Assembly (NCBI GenBank): GCA_016928155.1
Contig: JAFGLG010000002.1
Location: 80,412-144,411, forward strand
Length of the DNA stretch: 64,000 nucleotides
Reading direction: 5' to 3'
Source of the DNA: Candidatus Woesearchaeota archaeon
GTDB lineage: Archaea; Nanobdellota; Nanobdellia; Woesearchaeales; JAFGLG01
The notes below the pieces were generated by a model. That model did no database searches. It saw nothing but the letters and a program-made list of their open reading frames with translations, and was not told the DNA's origin. The position numbers were made by a program, and so were the translations under genes. Positions 10,350 to 58,103 of the stretch are shown here, piece by piece. Within the stretch, counting starts at the first letter, position 1, and each line of letters starts with the position of its first letter.

Positions 10350-12566
10350 TTATTTGTAATCTTTTCCGGTATACCTCTTCATCATCAATGAATTTGTGAC
10401 CACACTCACACTGGAAAATGCCATGGCTCCGCCAGCAATTATCGGTGACAAGAGCCAGCCTGTGACATGGTACAAGATACCTGCAGCAACAGGGATGCTG
10501 ATGATGTTATAGAAGAAAGCCCAGAAGAGGTTCTGCCTTATCTTTCTCATCGCATACCTGCTCAGATCCATTGCCCTGACAACATCCATCATGTCGTTCC
10601 TCACAAGCACAATATCACCTGACTCAATAGCGACATCTGTACCTGAACCAATAGCAATGCCAATATCTGCCTGAGCCAAAGCAGGGGCATCATTTATCCC
10701 ATCGCCGACCATTGCGACTAAACCTCTCTTCTGCAGCTTCCTGACCTCTCTAGCCTTGTCCTGGGGGAGAACTTCAGCAAGGACATGATCAATGCCAAGC
10801 TGGGCAGCTATTGCTTCACCAGTGCGCCTGTTGTCGCCAGTCATCATCACAACTTTCTTGCCCATCATCCTGAGCTTCTTGACAGCAGCAACAGAACTTC
10901 TCTTGGGGGTGTCAGCGACAGCTATCAGGCCGAGAGCCTTCGTATCAGCAAGAACCATCACAGTCTTGCCCTGCTTCTCCAGGTCCTGAATCTTTCTCTC
11001 AGCTTTGGATATTGAGATCTTTCTTGACTTCATGAGTTTCCTGTTGCCAAGATAATATGCCTTTCGATTGTAAGATGCCTTTATCCCGCTGCCGACAAAA
11101 GCCTTGAAGGAATCTGCATCAGGAAGCTTCATCCTTTTCTGCTTAGCAGCACCAACAATTGCATCTCCCAGAGGATGCTCTGAACCCTTCTCTAGAACAG
11201 CAGCAATCCTGAGCAATGAATCCTGCTTCTCTTTCCCAAGAGAAACAATGTCTGTGACAACAGGCTTACCCTCTGTCAGGGTGCCAGTCTTGTCAAATAC
11301 AATTGTGTCCATCTTATGGGCCTGCTGAAGTGCAGAAGCGCTCTTTATCAGGATACCATGCTGAGCAGCCAGACCTGTGCCTACCATTACAGCAGTCGGT
11401 GTGGCAAGACCAAGCGCACATGGACAGGCAATGATCATCACAGCAACAAAAATAGTAAGTGCAAAAGCAAAGCCGAAACCGAGGAAATACCATATCAATG
11501 CTGATATAATCGCGATCAAAACAACAACCGGGACAAAATAAGCTGAGATGATGTCAGCAAGCTTCTGGATAGGGGCTTTGGAGCCCTGTGCATCCTCGAC
11601 AAGCTGTATGATCTGAGCAAGGAAAGTATCAGAGCCTATCTTCGTTGCCCTGAACCTGAAAGATCCTGATTTGTTTATAGTGGCTCCGATAACCTTGGCC
11701 CCTTTAGATTTCTCCACTGGAATTGATTCTCCTGTGATCATTGACTCATCAACAGAAGAATGGCCCTGAGTCACAATGCCATCAACAGGGATCTTCTGGC
11801 CTGGCTTCACAACAACAGTATCCCCTACAACAACCTGGTTGATCGGTATGATTAACTCCTTCCCTTTCCTGAAAACTGCAGCGGTCTTAGGCTGCAGTCC
11901 CATCAGATTCTTGATCGCTTCAGATGTCTTGCCCTTGGCAACAGCCTCAAGATACCTGCCAAGCATGATGAAGACGACAAGAAGACCGGCAACCTCAAAA
12001 TACAAATCATTAGAACCGTAATTTTGACTGCCAGACCAAATCATGATCGCTATGAACAAGCTGTAGAGGTATGCAGATCCAGTGCCCAGGGCAACAAGAG
12101 TATCCATGGTAGCTGTGCCAGATTTGAATATCGTCGATATGCCCCTTGTGTAGAAATGATAATTAGCAATCAGTATTGGTGTTGTGAGAATAATCTGGAT
12201 CAGTGCCATGTTCCGTAATATGAAATCCGGGAGAGCTATGCCAATATGAGGGGCCATTGCAAAGACCAACAATGGAAAGCCCAAGACTACAGAGAAGATA
12301 AGCTGCTTCTTTATTGTCAGAATCTCTTTCTGCCTGGCCTTCTTCTCATGATCAACAGAAGCTGAAGCCAGAGAATAACCAATACCCCCGATAGTCTTCT
12401 TTATGAGCTTCATATCCAGCTCATCCTTGTGGGACACTGTAGCCTTATGAGTAGCGTAGTTGACAGTGGCATTGTCTATACCGGGAACCTTCTTCAGCTT
12501 GCGTTCAATCCGTGCAGCGCAGGAAGCGCAATGCATCCCTCCTATCGGCAGATCTGTCTTCTTCAT
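10350..12566 (-). CDS. copA: copper-translocating P1B-type ATPase
   Basis: N-terminal [11 protein letters not shown], transmembrane CPC motif [11 protein letters not shown], phosphorylation DKTGTLT, hinge [10 protein letters not shown]. Confidence 0.95.
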
Positions 12567-12769
12567 TGTATTCTTACCTTATAATCCCCTTCTGACTCTA
12601 TCGAACTGATGATATTCTTGCTTGATCTTTCTGTCTTAATGGTGAGGACTCCTATCTTAGATTTCTCATCAACCTTGAATGATGAGATCTTCGCTCCCTG
12701 CTCTTCCATGATATCCTCAATAAGACCTTTGCATGCTTTGCAATGCAATCCTTTAATCTCTAATTCCAT
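12563..12769 (-). CDS. copZ: heavy-metal-associated copper chaperone
   Basis: 68 aa; GLHCKACKG (MxCxxC-type HMA site); 4-nt overlap with copA start. Confidence 0.8.
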
Positions 12770-12793
12770 CTTAAGACCTCCAGAAAAGAAAGG

Positions 12794-13240
12794 TTATGCA
12801 AACCTTCTCTTGCCTGCTGCAAGATCTGCCTTGTTGATGACTAGACTATCACCTTGGACCTTGCTTGGCAGAAAACCAGGCCAGCAACCACCACCCATGG
12901 TGTTCTCAGTGCCTAAACCGCTTAGGGGATACTTGTTGCCACAATTATTGCAGACCATCTGATCACCTTCCTGTCTATAACCCTTTTTCTGTGCACCACA
13001 GACATCACAGGCATCAAAAGCGGTCTTGATAGAGCCGTCACTGTCTTTCACTGCAAAGAACCTGACAGCAACACCATTTACAGCATATTCATAAAACTGA
13101 GCTGTCGATGAGATCTGCGATGTTGGAATGCTCATGACCCCTGTCGCAGCAATAGCATTGCCTGCAACACCTGATGGCTTCAGCACATAACCTAAAGCAA
13201 TGACGACAAACAATATCAAAACAGCATATCCTTTCTTCAT
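12794..13240 (-). CDS. membrane-anchored Cys4 zinc-ribbon-like metal-binding protein
   Basis: N-terminal TM/signal region, then CDVCG-x15-CNNCG; internal ATG at 13238-13240 preceded by GAGGGGG SD (the track ORF extends into the upstream gene). Confidence 0.55.
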   Translation of the reverse strand: MKKGYAVLILFVVIALGYVLKPSGVAGNAIAATGVMSIPTSQISSTAQFYEYAVNGVAVRFFAVKDSDGSIKTAFDACDVCGAQKKGYRQEGDQMVCNNCGNKYPLSGLGTENTMGGGCWPGFLPSKVQGDSLVINKADLAAGKRRFA

Positions 13241-13253
13241 CTTAGATACCCCC

Positions 13254-14246
13254 TCAGCCGCCAGTGCAACCGGCACCTGAACTATCATAATCACCATAGC
13301 CACCACAACCGCCACCACAACCAGTTTTGCCACAACCTCCAGCCCCGCCGCACCCTATTGATCCTGCTTCAGCAGTATTTGCACTAACTGCTTTGAGGCC
13401 ATCCTGGGCAACAGCTCCTGTTGAATCATCAAGGACTGTAGCAGGATACTCGCTGAAAACCTCCAATTGCAGCATCTGCTCTTTTGATGTCTGAGATGAA
13501 TCATAAGATACATCAAAATCATTGGGGAAGCTGAATCTGACAGATTCAACTCCGGCCACAGTCTTAAGCTCATTTGAGATAAGAGGGGCGTGACCAGGGC
13601 AGGGTATATCAACACTTATCTTGAGCAGTGAATCAGGTGAACCGGGGATCCCTGCAGATGATGCTGAAGGGGAAGCTATTGAGATATTGGCCATCAGAGG
13701 GAATATCAGGAAAAAGAGCACAATATTTATCCCAACTGTAGAGCCATACATTGAAGCCAAGTACTTCCATTTCTTCCTGACACCCTCAAAAGAGAGGAGG
13801 GAATTCCTCCTCAGATAGAGGGCACTCGAGAGGGTTGCGAAAAGAATCGAAATGCCAATCAGGAAATGGAAAAAGTAACGGTTCATCAGCAAGGGCTTGA
13901 AGAACTGCATCAGCACAGTGACTCCCAGCACAGAACCGATTATGAAAGCTATACAGCCAATGTGCGGGATAAGACCATATCCAAGACCCTGCCAAAAAGT
14001 ATGCTTCCTCTTCTCTCCATTTACACCATCAATAGCGTAACCAAGATCCAAGACCTTGCTCTTGATCTCATCCAGACTAATAATATCCTGGTCATACTTA
14101 ATATCTGCAGTGCCCTTATCCAAAAATACCTCAATCCTCTGCACACCTTCCAGCTTTATCAGGCGCTTCTCAATAGTCCTGACACAGCTCTGGCATGTCA
14201 TACCATCAATCCTAAATGTCTCATCCTTCATGTCAAAAACCTCCAT
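13254..14246 (-). CDS. HMA-domain-fused polytopic membrane protein with a C-terminal Gly/Cys-rich tail
   Basis: N-terminal GMTCQSCV HMA domain, about 5 TM helices, a second ferredoxin-like module with CPGH, and the tail CGGAGGCGKTGCGGGCGGYG. Confidence 0.7.
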   Translation of the reverse strand: MEVFDMKDETFRIDGMTCQSCVRTIEKRLIKLEGVQRIEVFLDKGTADIKYDQDIISLDEIKSKVLDLGYAIDGVNGEKRKHTFWQGLGYGLIPHIGCIAFIIGSVLGVTVLMQFFKPLLMNRYFFHFLIGISILFATLSSALYLRRNSLLSFEGVRKKWKYLASMYGSTVGINIVLFFLIFPLMANISIASPSASSAGIPGSPDSLLKISVDIPCPGHAPLISNELKTVAGVESVRFSFPNDFDVSYDSSQTSKEQMLQLEVFSEYPATVLDDSTGAVAQDGLKAVSANTAEAGSIGCGGAGGCGKTGCGGGCGGYGDYDSSGAGCTGG

Positions 14247-14327
14247 AATGAGTTTGATGACAATACAAAAGTTGAAACAGCATATTATATATTGTATGAA
14301 ACCAGTTTCATTGCCATAAGAACAGAT

Positions 14328-14786
14328 TCAGTGCTTGAGAACAACCACATTGGTCATGCCGCGCCTCTTGCGCTCTATCAGACCTTTACCTTCAAGCCTG
14401 TCAAGAAGCCTAGTGACCTTGACCTTGCTCATATTAGTCTTCTCGACCAGGTCTGACTGGAAAATGGTGCCATCAGAAGATGCCAGGGCAGCCATGATGA
14501 GCTTCTCATCATTGCTGAGATCCTTTGGAAGGGCTTTCCGGGGCTTTTTATCGAATGATTCCTTGTCACCCCATAACACCAGATAGATACCTCCGATAAT
14601 AACAAAGACCATGATCACAATACCTATATTTGTCTGGACATCAAGGGTCTGCCACATGGGACATTCTGATCCATGGGTACAGGATGCATTGACAATATCA
14701 GTCAAGGCCCTGTTGAATAGGTATACAATAAATCCTATCAAAACTGCAATGCCTATAATCAACAATCCCACTGTGCGGTTCTTCAT
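14328..14786 (-). CDS. membrane-anchored winged-helix transcriptional regulator (putative metal sensor)
   Basis: Two TM helices flank the loop NASCTHGSECPMWQ; C-terminal wHTH LIMAALASSDGTIFQSDLVEKTNMSKVKVTRLLDRLEGKGLIER; start taken at internal MKNRTV (coordinates approximate by 1-2 nt). Confidence 0.6.
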   Translation of the reverse strand: MKNRTVGLLIIGIAVLIGFIVYLFNRALTDIVNASCTHGSECPMWQTLDVQTNIGIVIMVFVIIGGIYLVLWGDKESFDKKPRKALPKDLSNDEKLIMAALASSDGTIFQSDLVEKTNMSKVKVTRLLDRLEGKGLIERKRRGMTNVVVLKH

Positions 14787-14868
14787 TTTACTTAACAATA
14801 GTTTATTATTTATAAATGTTTCCATATGCACGGCCTTGAAAAGGGAAATCCATTTATACCAGGATATA

Positions 14869-14882
14869 TTAACAATTGTTAA
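14869..14882. promoter_or_regulatory. perfect 14-bp palindrome TTAACAATTGTTAA in the divergent region between the metal-island regulator and sod
   Basis: Seen directly, about 20 nt upstream of the sod GTG start. Confidence 0.45.
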
Positions 14883-14899
14883 TAAATCCATGAAAGGGG

Positions 14900-15511
14900 G
14901 TGAATGAGATGCATGAACTGCCAAAACTGGATTATGGATATGATGCACTTGAGCCGCATATCGATGAAAAGACAATGAGGATCCACCACACAAAGCACCA
15001 TCAGGGATATGTAGACAAATTGAATGAAGCAGTCAAAGGCACAGAGTTCGAGAGCATGACTGCAGAAGGGCTGCTGATGCACCTGGAAAAGGTGCCGGAG
15101 AGGATCAGGACTGCTGTAAGAAACAATGGAGGGGGGCATTATAACCACTCCCTTTTTTGGAAAGTGATAGGACCTGACTGTGGGGGAAAACCCGGCGGAA
15201 AGCTAGGAGACGACATCCAGAAGAAATGGGGAAGCTTCGAGAAATTCAAAGAAGAATTCTCAAATGCAGCAGCAATAATATTCGGCAGCGGATGGGCGTG
15301 GTTAGTTGCGGACAAAGGGAAACTCGAGATAACCATCACAGCAAACCAAGACAGTCCTATAAGCAAGGGAAAGATGCCTCTCATAGGGTTAGATATCTGG
15401 GAGCACGCATACTACCTCAGATATCAGAACAAGAGGCCGGAGTATATCAAAGCCTGGTGGAATATGGTTGATTGGAAGCGAGCAGATGAAAGATATAGAA
15501 GGGCTTTATAA
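14900..15511 (+). CDS. sod: Fe/Mn superoxide dismutase
   Basis: [25 protein letters not shown], metal-ligand context DIWEHAYYL. Confidence 0.95.
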
Positions 15512-15550: not shown

Positions 15551-16585
15551 ATGCTGAATGATGAAACAAGAAAGGAGCTTGAAAAGCAGCAATACCGCCT
15601 TGTAGGGAACCACAGCGCTGTGAAGATATGTGGCTGGACAAAGAAGATGATAAAAGGGGAAGGATGCTGCTACAAGGAGAGATTCTACGGCATAATGAGC
15701 AACCAGTGCCTGCAGATGACCACAGCATTATCATGCGCCAACAGATGCCAATTCTGCTGGAGAGGATACAAAGCACCAGTATCAATAAAATGGGAAGGAC
15801 CTATAGATGAACCCAACACCATCATTGATGGATGCATGGAAGAGCATCACGACCTGCTCGCAGGACTGAAAGGATACAAGAAGGTGAATATGGGAGCTTA
15901 TGAGAGATCCAAAAATATCAGGCATGTCGCCCTGTCCTTGACCGGAGAGCCGATAATATACCCGAAGATCAATGAGATAATATCAGAATTCCACAGACGC
16001 AAGATATCGACATTCCTCGTGACAAACGCACAATACCATGAAGAGATAAACAACCTGGGACCTGTGACACAGCTCTACCTGAGCATCGGGGCGCCGAACA
16101 AGGAACTCCTGAAAGAGATCGAAAAGCCGCTGTTCCCTGACTATTGGGAGAGACTGCACAAAAGCCTTGAAAATCTGGCCAAAAAAAAGCACAGGACATG
16201 CATAAGGCTCACGATGGTAAAGGACATGAACATGACAGAACCGCAAGGATATGCAGAGCTGATAAAGAAAGGGGACCCTGACTTTGTAGAGGCCAAGGCA
16301 TACATGTTTGTCGGAGCGTCAAGGCAGAGGCTGAAGCTCGAGAACATGCCATACCATCATGAGGTCATGGAATTCACCAAGAAGCTGATCGAATACCTGC
16401 CGGATTATGAGATAGCATCAGAGCATGAGCCATCAAGGGTCGTGTGCCTGGCAAAGAAAAAATTTAAGAAGGATGGCAGATGGCACACGTGGATAGACTT
16501 CAAGAGGTTCTTCCATCTTATTGAAGCAGGAGAAGAAGCCGCAGATTACAACAGACTGATGCCAGAGGCATTCGAATATGTATGA
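15551..16585 (+). CDS. taw1: tRNA 4-demethylwyosine synthase (radical SAM, Tyw1/Taw1)
   Basis: Radical-SAM cluster CANRCQFCW plus the upstream Cys pair (CCYK) for the auxiliary cluster; TYW1-like overall. Confidence 0.85.
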   Translation: MLNDETRKELEKQQYRLVGNHSAVKICGWTKKMIKGEGCCYKERFYGIMSNQCLQMTTALSCANRCQFCWRGYKAPVSIKWEGPIDEPNTIIDGCMEEHHDLLAGLKGYKKVNMGAYERSKNIRHVALSLTGEPIIYPKINEIISEFHRRKISTFLVTNAQYHEEINNLGPVTQLYLSIGAPNKELLKEIEKPLFPDYWERLHKSLENLAKKKHRTCIRLTMVKDMNMTEPQGYAELIKKGDPDFVEAKAYMFVGASRQRLKLENMPYHHEVMEFTKKLIEYLPDYEIASEHEPSRVVCLAKKKFKKDGRWHTWIDFKRFFHLIEAGEEAADYNRLMPEAFEYV

Positions 16586-16835
16586 TCTTGAGATCAACAG
16601 GCTGAAAGAGGAGATCAGGAAAAGGAATGCGAAGAGAGTGCTGCTGCAGCTGCCTGACGGGCTCAAGCCAAAGGCGAAGGAGATAGTCGATGAGCTGCAG
16701 AAATATTCAGCGGTCGAAGTGTTTGTGTGGCTAGGGAGCTGCTATGGCGGATGCGACATACCAGATGTAAAAGCCCTGGGTGTCGACCTGATAGTGCAAT
16801 ACGGCCACAGTATATTCCATAAGGAGGAATGGTGA
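16578..16835 (+). CDS. dph2: diphthamide synthesis Dph2, N-terminal domain fragment (2-(3-amino-3-carboxypropyl)histidine synthase)
   Basis: AKRVLLQLPDGL, GGCD, QYGHS match Pyrococcus Dph2 domain 1; ends at TGA 16833-16835. Confidence 0.7.
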   Translation: MYDLEINRLKEEIRKRNAKRVLLQLPDGLKPKAKEIVDELQKYSAVEVFVWLGSCYGGCDIPDVKALGVDLIVQYGHSIFHKEEW

Positions 16836-17569
16836 TGGGCATAATCTTCATGGATGCAAAGTGGGACAAGGAGATCAAGCTAGGGGAAGAAGTGATTGAA
16901 TACCTCGAAGAGTATGCAAACTCAGTGGCGCTGTTCGCTTCAGTGCAGTTCCTGAACCTTGACACTGTGAAGCAGCAGCTGCGCTCCCGGGGGATAGAGA
17001 TAAGGACAACAAAAGCAAAAAGGACAGATGAAGAAGAGCAGATACTAGGATGCGACTGCTACCCTGATTCATTTGCAAAAGGCATAATCCCAGAAGCTGA
17101 TGCAATCCTCTATATAGGGGACGGCATGTTCCACCCCCAGGCGCTACTGCTAGCACAGATGCATACAGATAAGAAAAAAGAGATAATCACATGGAATCCT
17201 GCAGCAGAGAAGATGAGGATAATCAAGCCTCTGGAAGTCAAGAAAAATCTTGCAAAATACAAGGCGAACGTAATGAGATTCATGTCTGCAAAGAACATCG
17301 GCATCATGGTGACGACAAAACCGGGCCAGCAGTTCCTGGAGAAAGCGATAGAGCTCAAGGATGGCATCGCTGCCAAAGGAAAGAAAGCATACATATTCCT
17401 GGATGATTCAGTAAGCCTTAATCAGACAGAGAACTTCAACTTCATAGAGTGCTGGGTCAACACAGCATGTCCCAGGATAGGTCTTGACGACATACTGCAT
17501 CTTGAAAGGCCTATGATAAACATCAAAGAAGCCTTTGAGCCAGAGAAAGCACTGGAGCAGATAAAATGA
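16829..17569 (+). CDS. dph2: Dph2, C-terminal two domains, in a different frame (split gene or frameshift)
   Basis: GCDCY and TACPRIGLDD match the domain 2 and 3 cluster cysteines of Dph2; AAGGAGGAA SD directly upstream of ATG/GTG/ATG at 16829-16837. Confidence 0.7.
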   Translation: MVMGIIFMDAKWDKEIKLGEEVIEYLEEYANSVALFASVQFLNLDTVKQQLRSRGIEIRTTKAKRTDEEEQILGCDCYPDSFAKGIIPEADAILYIGDGMFHPQALLLAQMHTDKKKEIITWNPAAEKMRIIKPLEVKKNLAKYKANVMRFMSAKNIGIMVTTKPGQQFLEKAIELKDGIAAKGKKAYIFLDDSVSLNQTENFNFIECWVNTACPRIGLDDILHLERPMINIKEAFEPEKALEQIK

Positions 17570-18642
17570 ACAGGATGCTTGAATTCATAATATTCTTCAG
17601 CTTCTTCCTGGGGGTCTATGCTGCAATGAACTATTATGCCTATCTAAGGCTTGACATCATACTCGGAAGCAGACCCTGGCTCATGCCATTGATCATATTA
17701 TTGGGGCTGAGCTTCCCATTGCTCAGCGTGACCGAGCGGTTCATGCATCATAATACAGTGAGATATGCTTACATAATGTCCACAATATACCTAGGGGTAT
17801 TGTTCTTCATGATAGTGGCATTCGCATTATTGGATCTTGCCCATCTGGGTTCACTCATAGCAAAATCAAGCTTCAACTACCAACTAATCGGCCTGATAGC
17901 CCTGATAATAGTGATACTGGTGTCAGGATATTCAATGTTCAATGCCACACAGCTGAACATCAAGAAAATAAGCGTGCCAGGGGATGATGAGCTGAAGATA
18001 GTGCAGCTATCAGACATACATGTCGGCACAATACACACATCAAGATACCTGAAGAAGATTGTCAGAATCTCGAATGAACAAGAACCTGATATTGTGGCAA
18101 TAACAGGAGACCTGTTCGACGGAAGCGACGGAGTCAATAAGGAACTGATAATGCCCCTGAAAGACCTGAAGGCACGCCTTGGAGTGTACTTTGTGACTGG
18201 AAACCATGAGACCTACCTTGAGACAGACAAGATAGTGGAAATGGTGAGATCACTGAATGTGACAGTACTCAGGAATGAGATGACAGAAGCCGGCGGGGTG
18301 CAGATCATAGGGATAGACAACCCTACAAATGACCTCAAGAACAACATCCATCATCTCAAGAATATGGATATAGACAAGAAAAAGACCACAATACTGCTAT
18401 ATCATACGCCGATAGGGGTGAAAGAGGCATCAGAAGCAGGAGTTGACCTGATGCTCTCCGGCCACACGCACAATGGCCAGATATGGCCATTCGACATCAT
18501 GGTGAGGCTGTTCTTCAGATATGTGAAAGGCCTGTATGAGGTCGGGGACATGCACCTCTATCTCTCTCCGGGGGCAGGGACTTGGGGACCGCCGATGAGA
18601 CTTGGATCAAGATCAGAGATATCCGTCATAGAGATGAAATAG
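17566..18642 (+). CDS. membrane-bound calcineurin-like metallophosphoesterase
   Basis: 4 N-terminal TM helices, then the MPE motifs SDIHVG, GDLFDG, GNHE, GHTHNG. Confidence 0.8.
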   Translation: MNRMLEFIIFFSFFLGVYAAMNYYAYLRLDIILGSRPWLMPLIILLGLSFPLLSVTERFMHHNTVRYAYIMSTIYLGVLFFMIVAFALLDLAHLGSLIAKSSFNYQLIGLIALIIVILVSGYSMFNATQLNIKKISVPGDDELKIVQLSDIHVGTIHTSRYLKKIVRISNEQEPDIVAITGDLFDGSDGVNKELIMPLKDLKARLGVYFVTGNHETYLETDKIVEMVRSLNVTVLRNEMTEAGGVQIIGIDNPTNDLKNNIHHLKNMDIDKKKTTILLYHTPIGVKEASEAGVDLMLSGHTHNGQIWPFDIMVRLFFRYVKGLYEVGDMHLYLSPGAGTWGPPMRLGSRSEISVIEMK

Positions 18643-23383: not shown

Positions 23384-26020
23384 TTACTTCTTCTTGCCTG
23401 GCTTCTCATCCTCAGGTGTCTTCAGGGACAGATAACCGACAACAGCTATGACAAGCACACCAAGGACCACAAGCAATGCAGTGATCTTCCTGGAAGCTGA
23501 GTCATCGATCTCCTCGACAACCTGAACATCCTCGACCTGAGGCTCTGGTTCAGCTACGGGCTCTGGAGCCGGAGCAGGGGCTTTCTTCCCTGCAATGGCG
23601 AACTCTGAGAGACCAGGAGCATCAGCCCAGAACATAGTGTAATCTGAGTTGCTTCCCTGAGATTGGGTCTCGAGCTCTGTCCAAGAGTCTGTATACCTAT
23701 AAAGCCTTATGTCCTCAGCCTTGAAGCCATTCTGCTGCATCCAGGCATTGTCCACCCTGAACCTGAACCTTGCTCCCTGTACGGCGGAGTCATCAAGATT
23801 CTCGTGCTCAACAATAAGATACCTGTAGACATTGCCTAATTCTGAGGCTTTCAATGGCTTGGCAGGAACACCTACAACCATATCAACCCTCTGGCTGGCC
23901 TTCTGGACCGAGACCTCGAGCTGAGTGACAGGAATGTCTGCCTTGTCGATGCTCATAGTAAGGAGGGACGGCGCACTGACCTCAGGATAATAGTGCTTTG
24001 CATTCGGATAGGTTGGCAGGAAATCTGTCTTAGGCCCTGTCCATCCTCCCTTCATGACCAAAGGAGATCCCCCTTTCATGACCAAAGGCGAACTGCCGCC
24101 TGATGAACATTTCTTGTCAGCACCATTGCAGTCCTCGTCAATGCCATTCCCGCAGATCTCATTCTGAGGCATCACGGCATCGCAGTCATTGTTCCATGCG
24201 CCTGCTGTGCAGGTCTGAGTGCCGAGAGTGCAGATGCCTATGTTGCCGACTCCGCAGTCCCTTGTGGCTGTTGATCCTACCGAGGCATTATCATCGTCGC
24301 AATCTGAAGCCAATACCAGACCATCCTGATCAAGGTCATCGTCCAATGTCGCAGGATTGCAGTCATCATCCAAACCATTGTATGGAGTCTCTGACTTCCC
24401 TGGATTTATGTTCGGATTGTCATCGTTGCAGTCAATGAGCACAGGCTCGCAGAATCCTGGAACAAATTGGTCATAACCATCACTGTCCCTATCGCATTCT
24501 GTATCCGATGTTGCAGGATTGCAGTCATCGTCAATGCCGTTGAAAGGGATCTCTGCTGCTCCTGGATTTACATCCGGATCTGTGTCATCGCAATCATAGA
24601 CGCTCAGACCAGAGCATGCAGCTTCAGGGACATAATTATCGCCATCAGCATCAAAGCCCTCATCAGTCTGGCCGTCGCAATCATTGTCCTTGCCGTCGCA
24701 GACGGACTCATCAGCCTGATAATCAACGCTGTGGGCTGCATAAGTGGCCTGTGTGCAGGCATCCCACTCACCATCTGTGCAAACATCCTTGACAGATCCT
24801 GCGCAGACACCGACCTGGTTGTCGCAAAGAGGAGCGACATCGCAGGAATTCACGACAGTGAACTGGACTGGATCGCTTGTTGTCTTGTATATGGATTGGG
24901 CTGAATCAGCAATCTCAACCCTGTACGAAACAACATCCTGAGGCAGGAACTTGCCGATATTTGCTGTGAAGTCAAACATGCTCTTTGTCATTGCCACAAC
25001 CTGCTGTGCACCGCCATTTACTGTGTACTTGACCACGCCAGACAGGGTGTCATGATAGCCGAAAGCAGATGCTCCGACAATCACATCATCATTATGGCCT
25101 GGCTCCAGAGGTGTGTGGGAAACTGAATTTATTATGGGCTTGAAGTGGCCATAAGCAAAGAATGCAGATACAGTCTTTGACTCAGAGCTTCCTGTCACAG
25201 TGGCCTGAAGCCTGAATTTACCTGCAGGCGTATCAGGTGTATCCTTCACCCAAATAGTTGCAGTGCAGTCAGGCTGGACAAGACCATTGATCTCCCAGCC
25301 TGTCCCTCTGGTAACTTCAGCACCGCTCGGATTGAAAAGCTTCAGTGCACAGGAAACCAAACCACCCTCATCTTCCCTAGCATCGCTTGCAATATTTATA
25401 TTCTGGGCAGGATCTGAACATGCAGGACCTGGCCAGCAAGTAGCTGGATCCACAGAATAATCATTCAATGTAAGCTGTGTGAAAAAAAGACCTGCCGGCG
25501 GATCATCACTGTCAGGAGTAGAAGGATCGCAATCATCATCCTTGCCGTTACCCATTATCTCGGTCTCACCCGGATTGACATCCGGATCATTGTCATTGCA
25601 GTCATCGCCACCATAAGCGACTGCATCATATCCGTCGCTGTCAGCATCAGTTATCTGGCCTGTGTTGATGGTGAAAGTGACGCTGTCACATGCATCTGGG
25701 TACTGGTCAAGAGTGCAGTAATTGGTGCCGCCTGATGAAGCCATCCAGACATTAACTGTGTGCTGACCATCAGCAAATGTCCCGGGAAAAACATATGTCT
25801 CAGTCAAACCATCAGCAAATGGTGTGGCTAGAAATACAGACGGATTACCATCCATCTGCACATACACCCGCGGAACATTGAAATCTCCTGTAAACTGGAT
25901 TGTGACAGTATCGATATCAAGAACCTCTCCCTGAGCAGGTGAGTCTATCGTGATGACAGCACCCAAGGCTGAGAAGCTCATGATTAACAATACACACAAA
26001 AACAATGCTAGTTTCCTCAT
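23384..26020 (-). CDS. giant secreted surface protein with many Asp/Cys-rich MopE-like putative metal-binding repeats and a C-terminal TM anchor
   Basis: Signal peptide; repeated DxDGDGxxxxDCDDxDPxxNPGAxExPxNGxDDDCN modules (at least 6); Pro/Glu-rich linker, TM helix, KKK tail; internal tandem 27-nt duplication encoding GGSPLVMKGG x2. Confidence 0.8.
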   Translation of the reverse strand: MRKLALFLCVLLIMSFSALGAVITIDSPAQGEVLDIDTVTIQFTGDFNVPRVYVQMDGNPSVFLATPFADGLTETYVFPGTFADGQHTVNVWMASSGGTNYCTLDQYPDACDSVTFTINTGQITDADSDGYDAVAYGGDDCNDNDPDVNPGETEIMGNGKDDDCDPSTPDSDDPPAGLFFTQLTLNDYSVDPATCWPGPACSDPAQNINIASDAREDEGGLVSCALKLFNPSGAEVTRGTGWEINGLVQPDCTATIWVKDTPDTPAGKFRLQATVTGSSESKTVSAFFAYGHFKPIINSVSHTPLEPGHNDDVIVGASAFGYHDTLSGVVKYTVNGGAQQVVAMTKSMFDFTANIGKFLPQDVVSYRVEIADSAQSIYKTTSDPVQFTVVNSCDVAPLCDNQVGVCAGSVKDVCTDGEWDACTQATYAAHSVDYQADESVCDGKDNDCDGQTDEGFDADGDNYVPEAACSGLSVYDCDDTDPDVNPGAAEIPFNGIDDDCNPATSDTECDRDSDGYDQFVPGFCEPVLIDCNDDNPNINPGKSETPYNGLDDDCNPATLDDDLDQDGLVLASDCDDDNASVGSTATRDCGVGNIGICTLGTQTCTAGAWNNDCDAVMPQNEICGNGIDEDCNGADKKCSSGGSSPLVMKGGSPLVMKGGWTGPKTDFLPTYPNAKHYYPEVSAPSLLTMSIDKADIPVTQLEVSVQKASQRVDMVVGVPAKPLKASELGNVYRYLIVEHENLDDSAVQGARFRFRVDNAWMQQNGFKAEDIRLYRYTDSWTELETQSQGSNSDYTMFWADAPGLSEFAIAGKKAPAPAPEPVAEPEPQVEDVQVVEEIDDSASRKITALLVVLGVLVIAVVGYLSLKTPEDEKPGKKK
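24045..24097. repeat. 27-nt tandem duplication inside the CDS (encodes GGSPLVMKGG-SPLVMKGG)
   Basis: CCCTTCATGACCAAAGGAGATCC / CCCTTTCATGACCAAAGGCGAAC read directly. Confidence 0.6.
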
Positions 26021-26320
26021 TTTCTACCCCCCAAAATCCCCCTAAAAGGGCCATATTGATTATTATTAAATAGTATCTCGATGGCTTTACTTGCTCATAA
26101 TAAAGCACGTTGAGTACTAGTGAGGAAGGAATAAGTTGGCATATATAAAGATTGTTGAATTACAGGCTAGAAAGCCAAAATTCTGGGGTTTTACCACTTG
26201 TTAGGGAATATGAATTTTTCAAAACTTGACAAGCCATGATAACCCTGAAATCTGACTCCTAAAAGGAAATCAAGAAAAATATACATTAATATTAAATATT
26301 AGTGTATACTTTTTTGTGGC

Positions 26321-26530
26321 ATGAAAATTGAGAAAGTCATCAAAGAAATCCAACAGATACTTGCAAAAGATACCAGAGGATTGACAATCCAAGAACTTTC
26401 TGAGATAACCAAAGTGTCAAGGATAACAACATCCATGGCACTGATGAAGCTAGAAGGGGCAGAAACCATAGTTGTCCGCCCAGTCGGAAACTGCAAACTC
26501 CACTATCTAAAGGAGAAATACCCGAAATGA
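26321..26530 (+). CDS. small winged-helix DNA-binding protein (69 aa)
   Basis: LTIQELSEITKVSRITTSMALMKLEGAETIVVRP; 4-nt overlap with the next giant gene. Confidence 0.6.
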   Translation: MKIEKVIKEIQQILAKDTRGLTIQELSEITKVSRITTSMALMKLEGAETIVVRPVGNCKLHYLKEKYPK

Positions 26531-29500
26531 GCAGAAAAAAAATCATGGAAATTGCATTATTTATTATAATAATACACTTAATAATATATTCATCTGCAGC
26601 ATTGCACCCTAATGATTACTGGACAGAATCAAACAATGGCATTGTGAGCTGGAATGTGAGAAGCATAGCAGTTGACCATCAGAATTCTTCAATAATATAT
26701 GCATTGACACAGGCCAATGGAGTATATAAATCAGTGGATGGAGGAGAGACATGGAACCCAAAAACAAATGGGATCCCCGCTGATCCGAGCGTCACATGGG
26801 GCCACCTGTTCGGCAACCAGCTGACAATGGATCCGAGCAACAGCTCGATATTATACACGAACTTCGGAGGCATGCCTTTCAGGACAGCAGATGGAGGAGA
26901 GAGCTGGCAGAACATCACAGAAGGGATAGACACATGCCTGCCGCAGCATGCAATAGCTGGTGTTGCAGTGGATCCACAGAACAGCAGCCACATATTCGCA
27001 GCATTCACAGTATCAAGCTGTCCGGGGGGGATATATGAATCAGATGACAGCGGTGCGACATGGACACATATCGCGTCATATTCTGGATCAGGGGACCTCA
27101 ACAATGATGCATGGGCATTGACTGTTGATCCTACAAACAGCTCAAGATTATACAGCGCACCGCAATACCTGGGATTCCTGTACTCGACCGATGGAGGGCA
27201 TCACTGGACAAGGAATTCTCCAACAGGAGCAACATTGATACCTGGAATGGAAGTCGAGGTGCATCCAGAGAATACAAGCAGAATAATTTTGGGACAGGAC
27301 ACAGGCCTCTATGTATCACAAGATCATGGCATCAGCTGGACAGATAAGACTGATGTCATGGGCGGAGCAGTCTATGACATCGACTTTGCACCATCAGACC
27401 CCAGCATAGGATATGCAGTCGGTATGGGTGGAATAGCAAAATCAACAGATGGAGGTCTCAGCTGGTCAAAGATGAATGATGATGAAAGCCTTTCACTGAG
27501 AAGCGTCGCAATCGATCCAGATGACCCAGAAAGGATATACCTCGCTGACCTTGGAAAGGGAGTATTCATGTCGACAAATTCAGGAGAAGACATCGAGCAG
27601 AAGAATTCCGGGCTGCCAATCTCACGCGATATAAGAGCAACAGCGATAGCGCCTAGCGACCCGACAATATATTACATATCTGTGATCGGGAATGGATTCT
27701 ACAGGAGTGAGGACAAAGGGGAGAGCTGGACACTCATGAGCGTGCATGGAGATGTGATAAACACAATCGACATAGAAGTTGACAACAATGACCCAGAAAT
27801 CGTATTTGCAGGAATCACTAACATATACAAATCGACTGACGGTGGCATCACATGGAATGAAACACTTGAATCTGGAGATGATACAATAACAGACATTCAA
27901 ATGGACCCAAATGACAATTCCATCATATTTGCCACGAGCTCAAGATGGCCCTCTTCATCCTTGATATATAAATCAGAAGACAATGGGGATACATGGGGGA
28001 CAAAAACCGGATTCAGCCTTGTAACAAGAAGCGTTACACCGATAGTCATAGATGAGAGCAACAGCTCAAGGATATATGTAGGGACATACAATGGTCTCCG
28101 CAGAAGCATGGATGGGGGAGAGACATGGAGCCTGATAACCAACGGACTAACAGGCTATGGAACATGGATAGATGGAATTGGGATATACCCTGAAAATCCA
28201 AGCAGGCTATACCTCACTGCAAGAGACCATAACCTCCATTATTCAGATGATTATGGAAGCAGCTGGGCCACAAAAACCAATACTGCATCCTACCCCGGCA
28301 GGATAATAATCGATTGGCATAACCCTGATGATTTCTATGTCTTCACGCTCTATTCCTGGATGAAGTTCCTTGCAAATGCATCATCAAAAATATATATGCC
28401 CACAACAGGAATCAAAGGTGATGCCAAACGCTTCAGGGAATCTGCACTGCAAGACCCATTGAACCCGAACAGATTCATAAGCGGAGACTTCAACCAGGGA
28501 TTCATGGTATACAATAGGTATGAAGACAGAAAAGTCTCATATATGCTCCCAAAAAGGGTGATCCAGAACCATACACTCTATATCTCAGGGACAGTTGAGG
28601 ACAAACTGGATGGTGATGTGGACCTGATGGTCAATGACAGCGGGACAATCCTGCTCAACAAAACTGTTCCTGCTGAAAACGGTCACTTCGAATATCAATT
28701 CCTTGTCAATGCCAGTATCCCTATAGGGCAGAAGAAAATAACGTTCTATTTCCACAATCTCAGCGCAGGAGCCGACGGGTATAATGAGGCATATTTCACA
28801 GTGGATGATCTCAACATCCCCACCAATCACATGCCGCAGACATCTGGCTTCAACATGAGCTATGACTATACCTTAGACTGGGTGCGAGCAGGAGATTTCA
28901 ATTATTATGATGAAGACGATGATGAAGAAACTGGCTCCATAAAGGATATCTACATAAACAATGCGTTCCTGAAATCAGAGAGCTCCAGCCAGACTGCACT
29001 CATCCACTTTGATGGGAGCCCGAATACAACAGAAAACGACCCTTATGACTACAATGTGGATGGAGAATTTGATTATGCAACAGGAAAATTCGGACAGGCC
29101 ATCCATTTCGGAAACTACAGCTGGGTCAACTATGACTCCAGAGATGTCATGGATCTCCATCAAGGAACCATCGAGTTCTGGGTGAATACAGACTGGGATT
29201 GGGACAACCTGACAGAAGATGTATGGTTCATATGGTTCTCAGGATACTACGGGGACTATATCTATCTCCTGTGCAATGCAACAACAGACACCTTGGACTA
29301 TATCCTATATTCCAACAGCACAAAAAGTAACATCAGCATAGACACGTCAGACTGGACCAAAGACGAATGGCACCATATCGCAATCACATATAACCTATCC
29401 GGCAGCCATGAAAATAATTCCATGGAGATATTTGCAGACGAGAGATACAGTTCAGAATCAGGCATATACCCTATCAGGACAATAGGATTATATGACGCGA

Positions 29501-30471
29501 TCGGATTCGGCCATCATCACTATTCAATGGATGAACTCAGGATATCAGATGCAGTGCTTGATCCCACAGTAATAAACTACAGCAGGCACAGGGACACAAC
29601 ATTCTATGATGATGAGATTCTCGTCGACAATAGTCATTATGGTGGATTGGACAACATCACGCTCAAATACTGCCCTTATGATGGAACGATGTATGGGGAA
29701 TGCTTGAACAGGACTGTGCTTATCAACCAGCCGCCGATTGCGGAAAGCATACTCCTGAATCCCGAAACTGTTCTGCCAGATGGGACACTGACCTGCTATG
29801 GGGCTGCATCTGATCCTGAAGGACAGCCAATGACATATTATTACCAATTCTACATCAATTCAATCGGACAAGGATGGAGCCTTAGCAGTCAATTCGACTG
29901 CGATGGTGTATGCAACGAGCTCGATGATATATACTGCGAATTCTACGCGAATGACAACGAGTGGAACACATCCATACTGCAGAGCAATAATGCCACAGTG
30001 GTCAGTGACTCAGATGGAGACACCGGCGGAGACACCGGCGGAGGCTCTCCGCTCGCGCTCAAGGGAGGAGGGGGCGGAGCGTATTATGCCGCCGAAGCTG
30101 CAACAAACGAGACCTGCACTGAAGACTGGAGCTGTGGAGAATGGAGCGAATGCATGGAGGGTATCAGAATCAGGGAATGCTTTGATACAAATGACTGCAA
30201 GACAAGTGTTAATATCCCGGCGACACAAACTGCATGCGAAGGAGAACCTCCTATATTCATAGAAAAGGCAAAAGGGACAACAGAAGAATTTGAGACAATA
30301 ATGGGACTGAAAGAGATAAATTACCACAACCTTATAATGTGGACAGCATCAATGGCAACAAGCGCCCTGATAATAATATTCATAATACTGGCACATGCAA
30401 GACCGCCGAAGAACAAAATCGATGAGATAAAGAAAGAGATGGAAGAATTTGGAATAAAATCAGCCAAATAA
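26527..30471 (+). CDS. giant surface protein: at least 11 BNR/Asp-box repeats (beta-propeller), a LamG/concanavalin-like domain, a Cys-rich module and a C-terminal TM anchor
   Basis: Repeated S-x-D-x-G-x-T/S-W (SVDGGETW, TADGGESW, SDDSGATW, STDGGHHW, SQDHGISW, STDGGLSW, SEDKGESW, STDGGITW, SEDNGDTW, SMDGGETW, SDDYGSSW); signal peptide; hydrophobic helix then basic tail at the C-terminus. Confidence 0.85.
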   Translation: MSRKKIMEIALFIIIIHLIIYSSAALHPNDYWTESNNGIVSWNVRSIAVDHQNSSIIYALTQANGVYKSVDGGETWNPKTNGIPADPSVTWGHLFGNQLTMDPSNSSILYTNFGGMPFRTADGGESWQNITEGIDTCLPQHAIAGVAVDPQNSSHIFAAFTVSSCPGGIYESDDSGATWTHIASYSGSGDLNNDAWALTVDPTNSSRLYSAPQYLGFLYSTDGGHHWTRNSPTGATLIPGMEVEVHPENTSRIILGQDTGLYVSQDHGISWTDKTDVMGGAVYDIDFAPSDPSIGYAVGMGGIAKSTDGGLSWSKMNDDESLSLRSVAIDPDDPERIYLADLGKGVFMSTNSGEDIEQKNSGLPISRDIRATAIAPSDPTIYYISVIGNGFYRSEDKGESWTLMSVHGDVINTIDIEVDNNDPEIVFAGITNIYKSTDGGITWNETLESGDDTITDIQMDPNDNSIIFATSSRWPSSSLIYKSEDNGDTWGTKTGFSLVTRSVTPIVIDESNSSRIYVGTYNGLRRSMDGGETWSLITNGLTGYGTWIDGIGIYPENPSRLYLTARDHNLHYSDDYGSSWATKTNTASYPGRIIIDWHNPDDFYVFTLYSWMKFLANASSKIYMPTTGIKGDAKRFRESALQDPLNPNRFISGDFNQGFMVYNRYEDRKVSYMLPKRVIQNHTLYISGTVEDKLDGDVDLMVNDSGTILLNKTVPAENGHFEYQFLVNASIPIGQKKITFYFHNLSAGADGYNEAYFTVDDLNIPTNHMPQTSGFNMSYDYTLDWVRAGDFNYYDEDDDEETGSIKDIYINNAFLKSESSSQTALIHFDGSPNTTENDPYDYNVDGEFDYATGKFGQAIHFGNYSWVNYDSRDVMDLHQGTIEFWVNTDWDWDNLTEDVWFIWFSGYYGDYIYLLCNATTDTLDYILYSNSTKSNISIDTSDWTKDEWHHIAITYNLSGSHENNSMEIFADERYSSESGIYPIRTIGLYDAIGFGHHHYSMDELRISDAVLDPTVINYSRHRDTTFYDDEILVDNSHYGGLDNITLKYCPYDGTMYGECLNRTVLINQPPIAESILLNPETVLPDGTLTCYGAASDPEGQPMTYYYQFYINSIGQGWSLSSQFDCDGVCNELDDIYCEFYANDNEWNTSILQSNNATVVSDSDGDTGGDTGGGSPLALKGGGGGAYYAAEAATNETCTEDWSCGEWSECMEGIRIRECFDTNDCKTSVNIPATQTACEGEPPIFIEKAKGTTEEFETIMGLKEINYHNLIMWTASMATSALIIIFIILAHARPPKNKIDEIKKEMEEFGIKSAK

Positions 30472-55550: not shown

Positions 55551-58103
55551 TTATTTCTCCTTCCTCATAAGCTCTTCAAGACGCTTGTGGATATTCATTA
55601 TCGATTCCTGGGCAACACTCCTGTATGAATAGATATAATTGCCCAGCATGCCCACAATGACAACCAATGCTACTGTAGCCATCAGGACCTGATTCTTTGT
55701 CTTGTGGTCAATGCCACTGAACCATTCCTTTATCTCTGCACGGCCCTGCTCTGAGAAAAGCATCCCGAGATTCGGGAACTTCCTTGCAGTCGGCCTAGGA
55801 GCCTCCTGCTCAGGAACAGGTTCAGGCTGCTTCACAGGAGGAGGAGCACCTGTATCAACACGCTTGGCAGGAGCGGATTCCTTTATGATAGATTTATCAG
55901 CATCTTCTGTATCATCTTCTTCATAACTTTTTGGACAGTCCTCAGGACAGGTAGTTGAATCCTCATTACTATCACATGTCCCATCACCGCAAGTCCCTAT
56001 CCCTGGTTCGTAATCGCCACCGCCACCGCTACTGCAATCTGCAGGACATGAGCTTGAAGTCTCTCCTGAACCACAATAATTGTTTCCGCATACCTCAGTG
56101 AAACTCCTTGTCTCACTATTCCCTGAATGACCACCCTGCGCAATGCACCTTATGTCCCAGTAACGGTCTACTATTGTCGGGGTATAAGTTATGAGTGTCG
56201 TGACATCCTCCTGTGTTGAGACATTTGTGGCCTTCTTGACGCCATTGACATACAAGCTGCAATTTGTCTCATCCAGCCTATCAGAAATGCTGAAGACAAA
56301 TTTATTAGTCGTGGTATTCCAGAGCACATCATCATCGGGCCAATCCAGGTACACACAGAATCTGTCTCCCAGCAGGCTATATGAATTATTCACCCCTCCC
56401 TCAGATATGTACTTCGTATTATGGCAGATCAGATTGTCGCTGACAGTCGTGTTATAAGAATCACGCGTCAAGATCGCAGTTGATGAATTCTGGATCGTAT
56501 TTGATGTTATGGATGCGAATGTCGAGTTCTGCAGATAGACACCCTGATTCACATCAATTATATTCTCAGAAATCTCCAGATGATCAGTCCTATTAAGGAA
56601 AAAACCAAATGTATAATTATGCAGTGCACAGTCATGCAAGGATATATTCGTCAGATTGATAATATGGAATGCAGAGCCTGAACCGTCACCTGTCAAGGAT
56701 GCGCCATTGCATTCCACGGTGATTCCTGACAAGGTGATGTTGAATATCCCGTCAAGATTCTTGTCAACCAGACTATAAGACCCAAGACAGAGAGTGATGC
56801 TCCTGTTGACAAGCAGATCATCATATGGCGAGAGGGTGTCAGAATCATAAGGGGCACAGTCTGTCGGATCAGGGTCGCCGTCACTGTCTGAATCAAGGGC
56901 GGTCAAGGAGATATCCAATGAGTAATCTGAAATGTTAAATCCGGCAGAATTCATGGCATAACCACCTGCAGTTGTATTCATGGTATATAAACCCACATAC
57001 AACGCGTCAGATACATTCACAAAAAATCCGGTCAAGAAAGGCACATCCACATACCCATTTGAATCTGATATCTTGGAAAATGCCACTCTTCCCAATCCAT
57101 CCCATGCAACCACATTTGCATCCCCGACAGGCAATCCTTCTGTGTCATTCACATGAATATCAACATATTCTTTTACATGCACCTCATAATCCCCCTGTTC
57201 TATATCAATTTTGGAATTATTCACTGATGTGTTCACCAATGAAAGCACATGGGTTCTTGCGAACGAATTCGGATTTGTGATATAGACATCCTTAGTGGCA
57301 CCACTGAATGAACTATCAAATGCAGATATATTGCCGAATTGCCCTATACCATTCAGGCCATACCTACTTCCTGCAGCCTGAATATTATGCATCTGCATTG
57401 AATTGAACCTACTGATCGGATTTGATGATGCACTAATGGCTATATTGATCCCGTCTCCGACATTCGCTATCGCCACAGAATTCTTAAATACAACATCACT
57501 TATCACATATCCGAATTGGATTGCTGCATAAGCAACATGAATCCCACTATATATGGAGGTAAGGTTGTCACCATAAAAGTTATTAGTGCCAATAATAATG
57601 GGATAATTATTGCCAGAGGAATTCACAAAGACATTTGACATGTTCAGGCTGTTGTTTAGGTCAGTACCCAAAAACTCCATTGTGCTGTCTGTCCTTATGC
57701 CAGAAACAAAGAAATCAATAGGCTTATACACATAAATGCTTTTGCTGTAATTGTATATATCACAATCAAGTATTGTCACATTATCTGAACCAGATTCTGA
57801 ATAGATCGCATATCCTGACATATTGCCCCGAATCAGAGAACCATTGCAGTCGAGCACTATGTCGCTTGCATTGATTATCATAACACCATTGTTGCCGGTG
57901 TCATTCACCTGATAGACAAGGCCGCAGAGGACTGTGTCATCGTTTATGTAGGTGTCATCATCGGTAATATTAATGCATGCCAAGGCAGAGGTCGAGAATA
58001 CAAGAGTGAATACCATTGCAGCAATCAACAGTGCAAATCTTGACATGCTTCTCATCTTCTTCAACCTCTTTTTCGAATAATCCTGCATCATCATCTTCTC
58101 CAT
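55551..58103 (-). CDS. secreted right-handed parallel beta-helix (PbH1/NosD-like) repeat surface protein with a Cys-rich module and a C-terminal TM anchor
   Basis: Signal peptide; many short Asn/Gly/Ile-rich turns typical of beta-helix; CGNNYCGSGETSSSCPADC...CGDGTCDSNEDSTTCPEDC; Pro/Glu linker, TM helix, basic tail. Confidence 0.8.
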   Translation of the reverse strand: MEKMMMQDYSKKRLKKMRSMSRFALLIAAMVFTLVFSTSALACINITDDDTYINDDTVLCGLVYQVNDTGNNGVMIINASDIVLDCNGSLIRGNMSGYAIYSESGSDNVTILDCDIYNYSKSIYVYKPIDFFVSGIRTDSTMEFLGTDLNNSLNMSNVFVNSSGNNYPIIIGTNNFYGDNLTSIYSGIHVAYAAIQFGYVISDVVFKNSVAIANVGDGINIAISASSNPISRFNSMQMHNIQAAGSRYGLNGIGQFGNISAFDSSFSGATKDVYITNPNSFARTHVLSLVNTSVNNSKIDIEQGDYEVHVKEYVDIHVNDTEGLPVGDANVVAWDGLGRVAFSKISDSNGYVDVPFLTGFFVNVSDALYVGLYTMNTTAGGYAMNSAGFNISDYSLDISLTALDSDSDGDPDPTDCAPYDSDTLSPYDDLLVNRSITLCLGSYSLVDKNLDGIFNITLSGITVECNGASLTGDGSGSAFHIINLTNISLHDCALHNYTFGFFLNRTDHLEISENIIDVNQGVYLQNSTFASITSNTIQNSSTAILTRDSYNTTVSDNLICHNTKYISEGGVNNSYSLLGDRFCVYLDWPDDDVLWNTTTNKFVFSISDRLDETNCSLYVNGVKKATNVSTQEDVTTLITYTPTIVDRYWDIRCIAQGGHSGNSETRSFTEVCGNNYCGSGETSSSCPADCSSGGGGDYEPGIGTCGDGTCDSNEDSTTCPEDCPKSYEEDDTEDADKSIIKESAPAKRVDTGAPPPVKQPEPVPEQEAPRPTARKFPNLGMLFSEQGRAEIKEWFSGIDHKTKNQVLMATVALVVIVGMLGNYIYSYRSVAQESIMNIHKRLEELMRKEK

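Follow-up and report, generated by a model that had tools for sequence, protein, structure and literature searches.

Does the dph2 locus of this woesearchaeal genome hold a single gene that was broken by an error or a mutation, or does it encode a diphthamide synthase that is made as two chains? In the window, by which we mean the whole stretch of 64,000 nucleotides that was analysed, Dph2 is encoded by two overlapping open reading frames (ORFs), and the comparison of this locus with its counterparts in related archaea leads us to conclude, with high confidence, that the pair is a genuine and ancient gene fission that would give a two-chain Dph2 from tightly coupled, overlapping genes.

Two overlapping genes that together encode Dph2

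The earlier note had described two ORFs in different frames, of 85 aa and 246 aa with a 7-nt overlap, and the sequence and the ORF list agree with this description. The pair and its immediate surroundings comprise the following features:

15551..16585, plus strand: tyw1 (radical-SAM wyosine synthesis; PF08608 and PF04055)
16578..16835, plus strand: dph2-N (ORF1, predicted small subunit), 85 aa, stop TGA at 16833-35
16829..17569, plus strand: dph2-C (ORF2, predicted large subunit), 246 aa from ATG 16829 or 244 aa from ATG 16835
16820..16837, plus strand: junction, with the ORF2-frame stop, the Shine-Dalgarno-like GGAGG, the candidate ORF2 starts and the ORF1 stop
16820-22, plus strand: junction TAA, which shuts the ORF2 frame just 5' of ORF2
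16823-27, plus strand: Shine-Dalgarno-like GGAGG core
16829 (ATG), 16832 (GTG) and 16835 (ATG), plus strand: candidate ORF2 starts
17566..18642, plus strand: membrane metallophosphoesterase (PF00149)

The matches of the two ORFs to Dph2 are collinear and far beyond chance, and the whole Dph2 profile is covered only by both together. Against PF01866, ORF1 aligns to profile positions 1-58 (E=6.8e-14) and ORF2 to positions 78-289 of 302 (E=7.3e-39); against TIGR03682, the respective positions are 1-66 and 73-292 of 308. Taken singly, the two fragments score 64.4 bits and 141.9 bits in TIGR03682, below the equivalog cutoff of 202.8 bits. Likewise, when the ORFs are aligned with M. smithii Dph2 (6q2d), residues 1-78 of ORF1 match its residues 6-84, and residues 7-234 of ORF2 match its residues 96-312. 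The collinear profile matches thus bear out the assignment of the pair to Dph2 that had been made from the letters and the translations, and NCBI carries both products of the contig as separate 'diphthamide synthesis protein' entries.

The ligands of the [4Fe-4S] cluster in PhDph2 are Cys59, Cys163 and Cys287 (PMC11048331). As had also been observed previously, the corresponding motifs are divided between the ORFs in a 1 + 2 fashion, with GGCD (C59) in ORF1 and GCDCY (C75) and TACPR (C214) in ORF2; these cysteines align to the PhDph2 ligand positions and are invariant in the relatives and in unsplit homologues. Three Dph2-type cluster cysteines, one per domain and not in a CX3CX2C arrangement, are therefore present in the pair and are the predicted ligands. 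The residues that form the SAM pocket of CmnDph2, namely G158, H180, Q237, R285, D289 and D290 (PMC10669111), have their equivalents in ORF2 (G74, H102, Q167, R216, D220 and D221), again invariant in the relatives. Furthermore, C59, D60, G57, P62, G76 and H77 are kept in 80/80 small-piece sequences, and C75 and C214 are invariant among the large-piece relatives. Both halves show 40-65% identity across many species and are free of internal stops, and purifying selection on both is clearly indicated at the sequence level.

ORF2 lies in the −1 frame relative to ORF1, and the 7-nt stretch shared by the two is ATGGTGA. The neighbouring genes are packed in the same manner: the tyw1 stop and the dph2-N start share 8 nt, and the dph2-C stop and the metallophosphoesterase ATG share 4 nt (ATGA). 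This series of stop/start overlaps, from tyw1 through the two halves of dph2 to the next gene, points to operon-like packing with coupled translation. In our survey of 80 related dph2 neighbourhoods (see below), the metallophosphoesterase was absent beside dph2, and tyw1 was found at no more than 3 kb from dph2 in 27 loci. When near the split dph2, tyw1 is mostly located directly downstream on the same strand; in the window and in one other locus (L035) it is directly upstream. The two genes, both of which encode Fe-S/SAM enzymes for modifying the translation machinery, are thus linked recurrently.

The same split in related genomes

The earlier note had proposed comparing the dph2 loci of close relatives. 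We surveyed one genome per species and obtained 80 loci, all in MAGs assigned to Woesearchaeota, Pacearchaeota or Nanoarchaeota unless labelled otherwise (see below). One of the loci ends at a contig edge, which leaves 79 that are informative. In 79/79 informative loci, the break in dph2 falls at the same residue, with the small gene upstream on the same strand.

The layout of the junction differs among these 79 loci. Relative to ORF1, ORF2 lies in frame +0, +1 and +2 in 17, 30 and 32 loci, respectively, and the small gene ends with TAA in 44 loci, with TAG in 19 and with TGA in 16. The halves overlap by 7 nt in 15 loci, by 4 nt in 1 and by 1 nt in 3, or are separated by spacers of 0-30 nt (36 loci), 31-150 nt (5 loci) or more than 150 nt (19 loci), so that the half-to-half distance ranges from a 7-nt overlap up to 2.1 kb. 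The coupled layouts seen in the relatives are ATGGTAx, which corresponds to the 7-nt overlap in 15 loci, and TGATG/TAATG, the 1-nt overlap in 3. In the 19 loci with a spacer longer than 150 nt, the halves are separated by open reading frames unrelated to dph2; the intervening genes tested were those of a low-molecular-weight (LMW) phosphatase, the UDG superfamily and a YhcG/DUF1016 nuclease.

A gene for an LMW phosphotyrosine phosphatase/ArsC-like protein (CX5R) lies between the halves in six genomes (loci L023, L037, L038, L041, L043 and L050); PF01451 was confirmed in both copies tested (L038 and L050), and in at least four of the six genomes the start of the phosphatase gene overlaps the dph2-N stop. 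The same slot is occupied elsewhere by UDG-superfamily genes (L067 and L077, with PF03167 confirmed for L077) and by a YhcG/DUF1016 nuclease gene (L065).

The lengths of the homologues were analysed as well. For ORF2, the best 120 homologues (48-59% identity) range from 233 to 276 aa, mostly ~245-250 aa, and none comes near the ~330 aa of an unsplit enzyme; for ORF1, the range among the best 120 is 78-122 aa, with nearly all of them at ~80-92 aa, and none is full-length. Among the representatives of 50%-identity clusters, the first ~100 matches are fragments or proteins of 205-258 aa, and most of the short representatives start aligning at one common N-terminal position; full-length proteins (301-337 aa) first show at about E=4e-26. 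Three short representatives were looked up: two are named as Woesearchaeota/Nanoarchaeota, one of these as a 'synthase subunit', and the third, from JGI, carries the enzyme name only. A 337-aa representative that was looked up comes from Thermoplasmata.

Several MAGs whose split dph2 is of this Woese-/Pacearchaeota type bear labels such as 'uncultured Methanosarcinales archaeon', 'Acidobacteriota bacterium', 'Paceibacterota bacterium' or 'Patescibacteria group bacterium'. These labels are probably taxonomic mislabels, or the contigs were mis-binned.

The break point

When the break (…GHSIFHKEEW | MGIIFMD…) is aligned with ten unsplit homologues, it falls in a short loop that leads from an invariant G-H to the next hydrophobic strand. 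The length of this loop varies among the unsplit proteins, and no residues were lost at the split. The small protein ends with a tryptophan in 75/79 relatives (Trp85 in the window, codon 16830-16832), and none of the ten aligned unsplit homologues has Trp at this position of the loop. In 15 loci, the ATG of the downstream gene takes its TG from the terminal TGG codon (A-TGG-TAx).

The AF2 model of the large piece alone has a pLDDT of 85. Its residues 1-19 are unstructured; a single helix comes next, and after this helix the chain forms two complete units, each built of four strands and three helices. A Foldseek search with this model returned Dph2 crystal structures as all of the top 15 matches, with query-normalised TM-scores of 0.64-0.78. 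PhDph2 reportedly consists of three domains, each with a four-stranded parallel sheet and three helices. Counting the secondary-structure elements of the model against this architecture, we place the break within the first domain and not between domains; three strands of this domain would then belong to the small piece, with the fourth strand and the final helix contributed by the large piece. AF2 applied without an alignment to the fused window sequence gave an unusable model (pLDDT 38). A comparison of the three domains with hhalign as internal repeats paired GGCD...YGHSIFH of the first with LGCD...IGDGMFHP of the second at E=0.09, which is not significant.

Alternatives to gene fission

Among the alternatives to a two-chain enzyme, the one that fares best, although we still consider it very unlikely, holds that the large piece alone is the enzyme, with the 85-aa protein being dispensable or repurposed and the cluster held by two cysteines and some other ligand. 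ORF2 does carry every SAM-contact residue, along with two cluster ligands out of three, and PhDph2 mutants with single Cys-to-Ala replacements are said to keep both the cluster and the activity in vitro. However, the persistence of the small gene on the same strand at every informative locus, with C59-D60 and G76-H77 invariant and the C-terminus fixed, is hard to reconcile with dispensability. Moreover, the N-terminal 19 residues of the large piece are left without a partner in the isolated model, which suggests that the small piece is needed.

Because the frames, stop codons, spacers and inserted genes differ among 79 loci with the same break, a sequencing error, a programmed frameshift and recent decay are excluded as general explanations, and the preference for a genuine split over a sequencing error or a frameshift, voiced in the earlier note, is supported by this survey as well as by the homologue lengths and an additional assembly.

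A programmed −1 ribosomal frameshift at the junction, which would produce a single fused Dph2, is suggested by the position of ORF2 in the −1 frame, overlapping ORF1, and by a purine-rich run before the ORF1 stop. Nevertheless, there is no slippery heptamer in 16820-16835, and the TAA at 16820-22 shuts the ORF2 frame 9 nt upstream of ATG 16829. In addition, a fused product cannot be the conserved state, given that ORF2 of the relatives occupies the +0, +1 or +2 frame and that the halves can be as much as 2.1 kb apart, with further open reading frames between them. We therefore regard frameshifting as exceedingly improbable.

An indel introduced by sequencing or assembly into a single dph2 of ~330 aa has a practically negligible probability. 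The two ORFs are indeed one base out of frame, and the window for a repair is small: because the TAA at 16820-22 closes the ORF2 frame upstream, a single-base repair of the frame is confined to ~10 nt. However, the Logan assembly of run SRR13394437, made independently from the same sample, shows 100% identity to the window along 6,258 bp that take in the junction, and the same two genes are called in it. The recurrence of the break in 79/79 other species with differing frames, stop codons and spacers and the lack of a full-length protein among the best 120 homologues of either half likewise speak against an indel.

There is just as little to be said for a decaying pseudogene in an organism that lost diphthamide synthesis, as did some Asgard archaea and Korarchaeota (loss of dph genes in some archaea is documented in PMC6143161), given that across many species the two halves keep 40-65% identity, uninterrupted frames and an unchanged set of cluster and SAM-pocket residues, and that the genes are tightly packed, which suggests coupled translation.

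Start codon and Shine-Dalgarno sequence of the large-subunit gene

The sequence AAGGAGGAA occupies positions 16821-16829, and its GGAGG core stops 1 nt short of ATG 16829, which is too close for GGAGG to serve this codon. The distance from the core to ATG 16835 is 7 nt, and because of this difference in spacing, ATG 16835 is more likely to be the ORF2 start than ATG 16829. A start at ATG 16835 yields a protein of 244 aa and a 1-base overlap with the TGA (TGATG), and it is the start chosen both in the NCBI protein and in the Logan gene call. Thus, of the previous observation that a strong Shine-Dalgarno sequence stands directly before ORF2, the motif itself is retained, but on account of the spacing it is reassigned to the second ATG.

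It had further been argued that the presence of this motif at the junction favours a real split. The split stands, but the Shine-Dalgarno motif does not prove it. GGAGG is not enriched upstream of the starts of long ORFs in the 64-kb window (11%, compared with 6-20% for control pentamers), and at this junction it coincides with the conserved K-E-E-W codons of ORF1. Because GGAGG is no more common than control pentamers before ORF starts, the argument from the Shine-Dalgarno sequence is weak and is unsupported in the window.

A model of the two-chain enzyme

Taken together, gene fission and the conservation of both halves translate into a simple model of the enzyme. Under this model, the two chains would form 2-(3-amino-3-carboxypropyl)histidine synthase, which catalyzes the first step of diphthamide synthesis on EF-2. 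The 85-aa chain would make up the greater part of the first domain and bring in Cys59 as a cluster ligand, and the chain of 244/246 aa would supply the last strand and helix of the first domain, the other two domains, Cys75, Cys214 and the whole SAM pocket. By strand complementation, the N-terminal strand of the large chain would complete the beta-sheet of the small chain, resulting in a Dph2-like protomer in which the [4Fe-4S] cluster is held across the subunit interface by cysteines of both chains. Two such chain pairs would be the equivalent of the archaeal Dph2 homodimer, and the assembled enzyme would cleave SAM and transfer the 3-amino-3-carboxypropyl group onto the EF-2 histidine. Strand complementation combined with cross-interface cluster binding is the most likely arrangement of the two chains; whereas the split, its conservation, the collinear coverage of the family, the retained catalytic residues and the large-piece fold are observed, the production of both chains, their assembly, its stoichiometry and the activity are inferred.

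A more far-reaching reading is that the fission is more than neutral breakage. The unvarying position of the break within the first domain and the near-invariant Trp, which unsplit Dph2 lacks, could be signs of a true (alpha-beta)2 heteromer. One of the three cluster ligands would then be located on an 85-aa protein that is produced separately, so that the supply of the small subunit could control cluster loading or activity. The linkage to tyw1 could reflect shared Fe-S/SAM handling in modifying the translation apparatus. We consider this possibility to be unlikely.

Relationship to known systems

A split dph2 in DPANN archaea is already known, and the pair in the window is the same phenomenon in the same lineage. 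Dph2 is given as split in the nanoarchaeon Nst1 by Podar et al. 2013 (PMC3655853); Narrowe et al. 2018 describe split Dph1/2 in DPANN including Woesearchaeota and caution against its use as a completeness marker (PMC6143161); and Dombrowski et al. 2019 list split Dph1/2 in Woesearchaeota, Pacearchaeota, Parvarchaeota and Altiarchaeota (PMC6349945). As in the window, the N- and C-terminal parts of these proteins are encoded by two genes, and there is no essential difference. Compared with the portions of these reports available to us, our analysis makes small additions, namely the uniform break in the first domain, the terminal Trp, the varied junctions with inserted genes and the linkage to tyw1. 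We know of no biochemistry for any split form of Dph2.

The archaeal Dph2 homodimer (P. horikoshii, 3LZC/3LZD; Ca. M. nitroreducens, 6BXM-O; M. smithii, 6Q2D/E) belongs to the same PF01866/TIGR03682 family and has in common with the window pair the three Cys ligands, the SAM-pocket residues and the fold of the large piece. The archaeal enzyme consists of one chain of ~330 aa, whereas the window encodes two (85 + 244), and the ligands of a cluster would here come from two different subunits.

The eukaryotic Dph1-Dph2 complex, which the split had brought to mind previously, is a heteromeric form of the Dph2 enzyme family as well, and to this extent the comparison holds. Otherwise, it is loose: the eukaryotic complex joins two full-length paralogues that both carry a cluster of their own, with the SAM pocket retained in Dph1 only (PMC10669111), whereas the window pair consists of complementary fragments of one protomer.

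Further parallels are the split genes of Nanoarchaeum equitans (reverse gyrase, alanyl-tRNA synthetase and others), which, like the window pair, are fissions in genome-reduced DPANN. The function of the split N. equitans proteins is presumed to be restored by non-covalent assembly (PMC3655853, PMC6349945). Many of the N. equitans halves are dispersed in the genome, whereas the dph2 halves are usually adjacent and translationally coupled; furthermore, the dph2 split is common to a very large radiation, and the N. equitans splits belong to a single species.

Other features of the window

No tRNA genes were detected in the 64-kb window by ARAGORN, no Rfam family reached the gathering score in positions 1-64000, and EF-2, dph5 and dph6 were not found among the ~29 ORFs scanned of the ~61 larger ORFs of the window. 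Upstream of tyw1, a metal-handling cluster on the minus strand spans 10350-14993 and is followed by a superoxide dismutase gene:

10350-12566, minus strand: heavy-metal P-type ATPase with an HMA domain
12794-13333, minus strand: FtrD-like membrane Fe-S protein
13254-14246, minus strand: HMA-domain protein, 329 aa
14328-14993, minus strand: MarR/DUF7343 regulator
14900-15511, plus strand: Fe/Mn superoxide dismutase, after the metal-handling cluster

Very large predicted surface proteins are encoded at 55551-63100 (minus strand) and 23384-30471. The predicted surface proteins include a 1,668-aa protein with beta-helix/NosD repeats and an adjoining 849-aa NosD-like protein, a 1,314-aa protein with BNR/sortilin repeats, and an 877-aa protein with MopE-type metal-binding motifs.

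Implications

Dph2 is used as a single-copy marker, and because the split halves fall below the equivalog cutoff, there is a risk that the gene is miscounted or flagged as frameshifted. The risk of miscounting the split Dph2 when genome quality is scored has already been raised by Narrowe et al. (PMC6143161). In general, the present findings on the split dph2 leave the current understanding unchanged. The fixed break point of dph2 is a candidate shared derived character of the radiation that comprises Woesearchaeota, Pacearchaeota and Nanoarchaeota.
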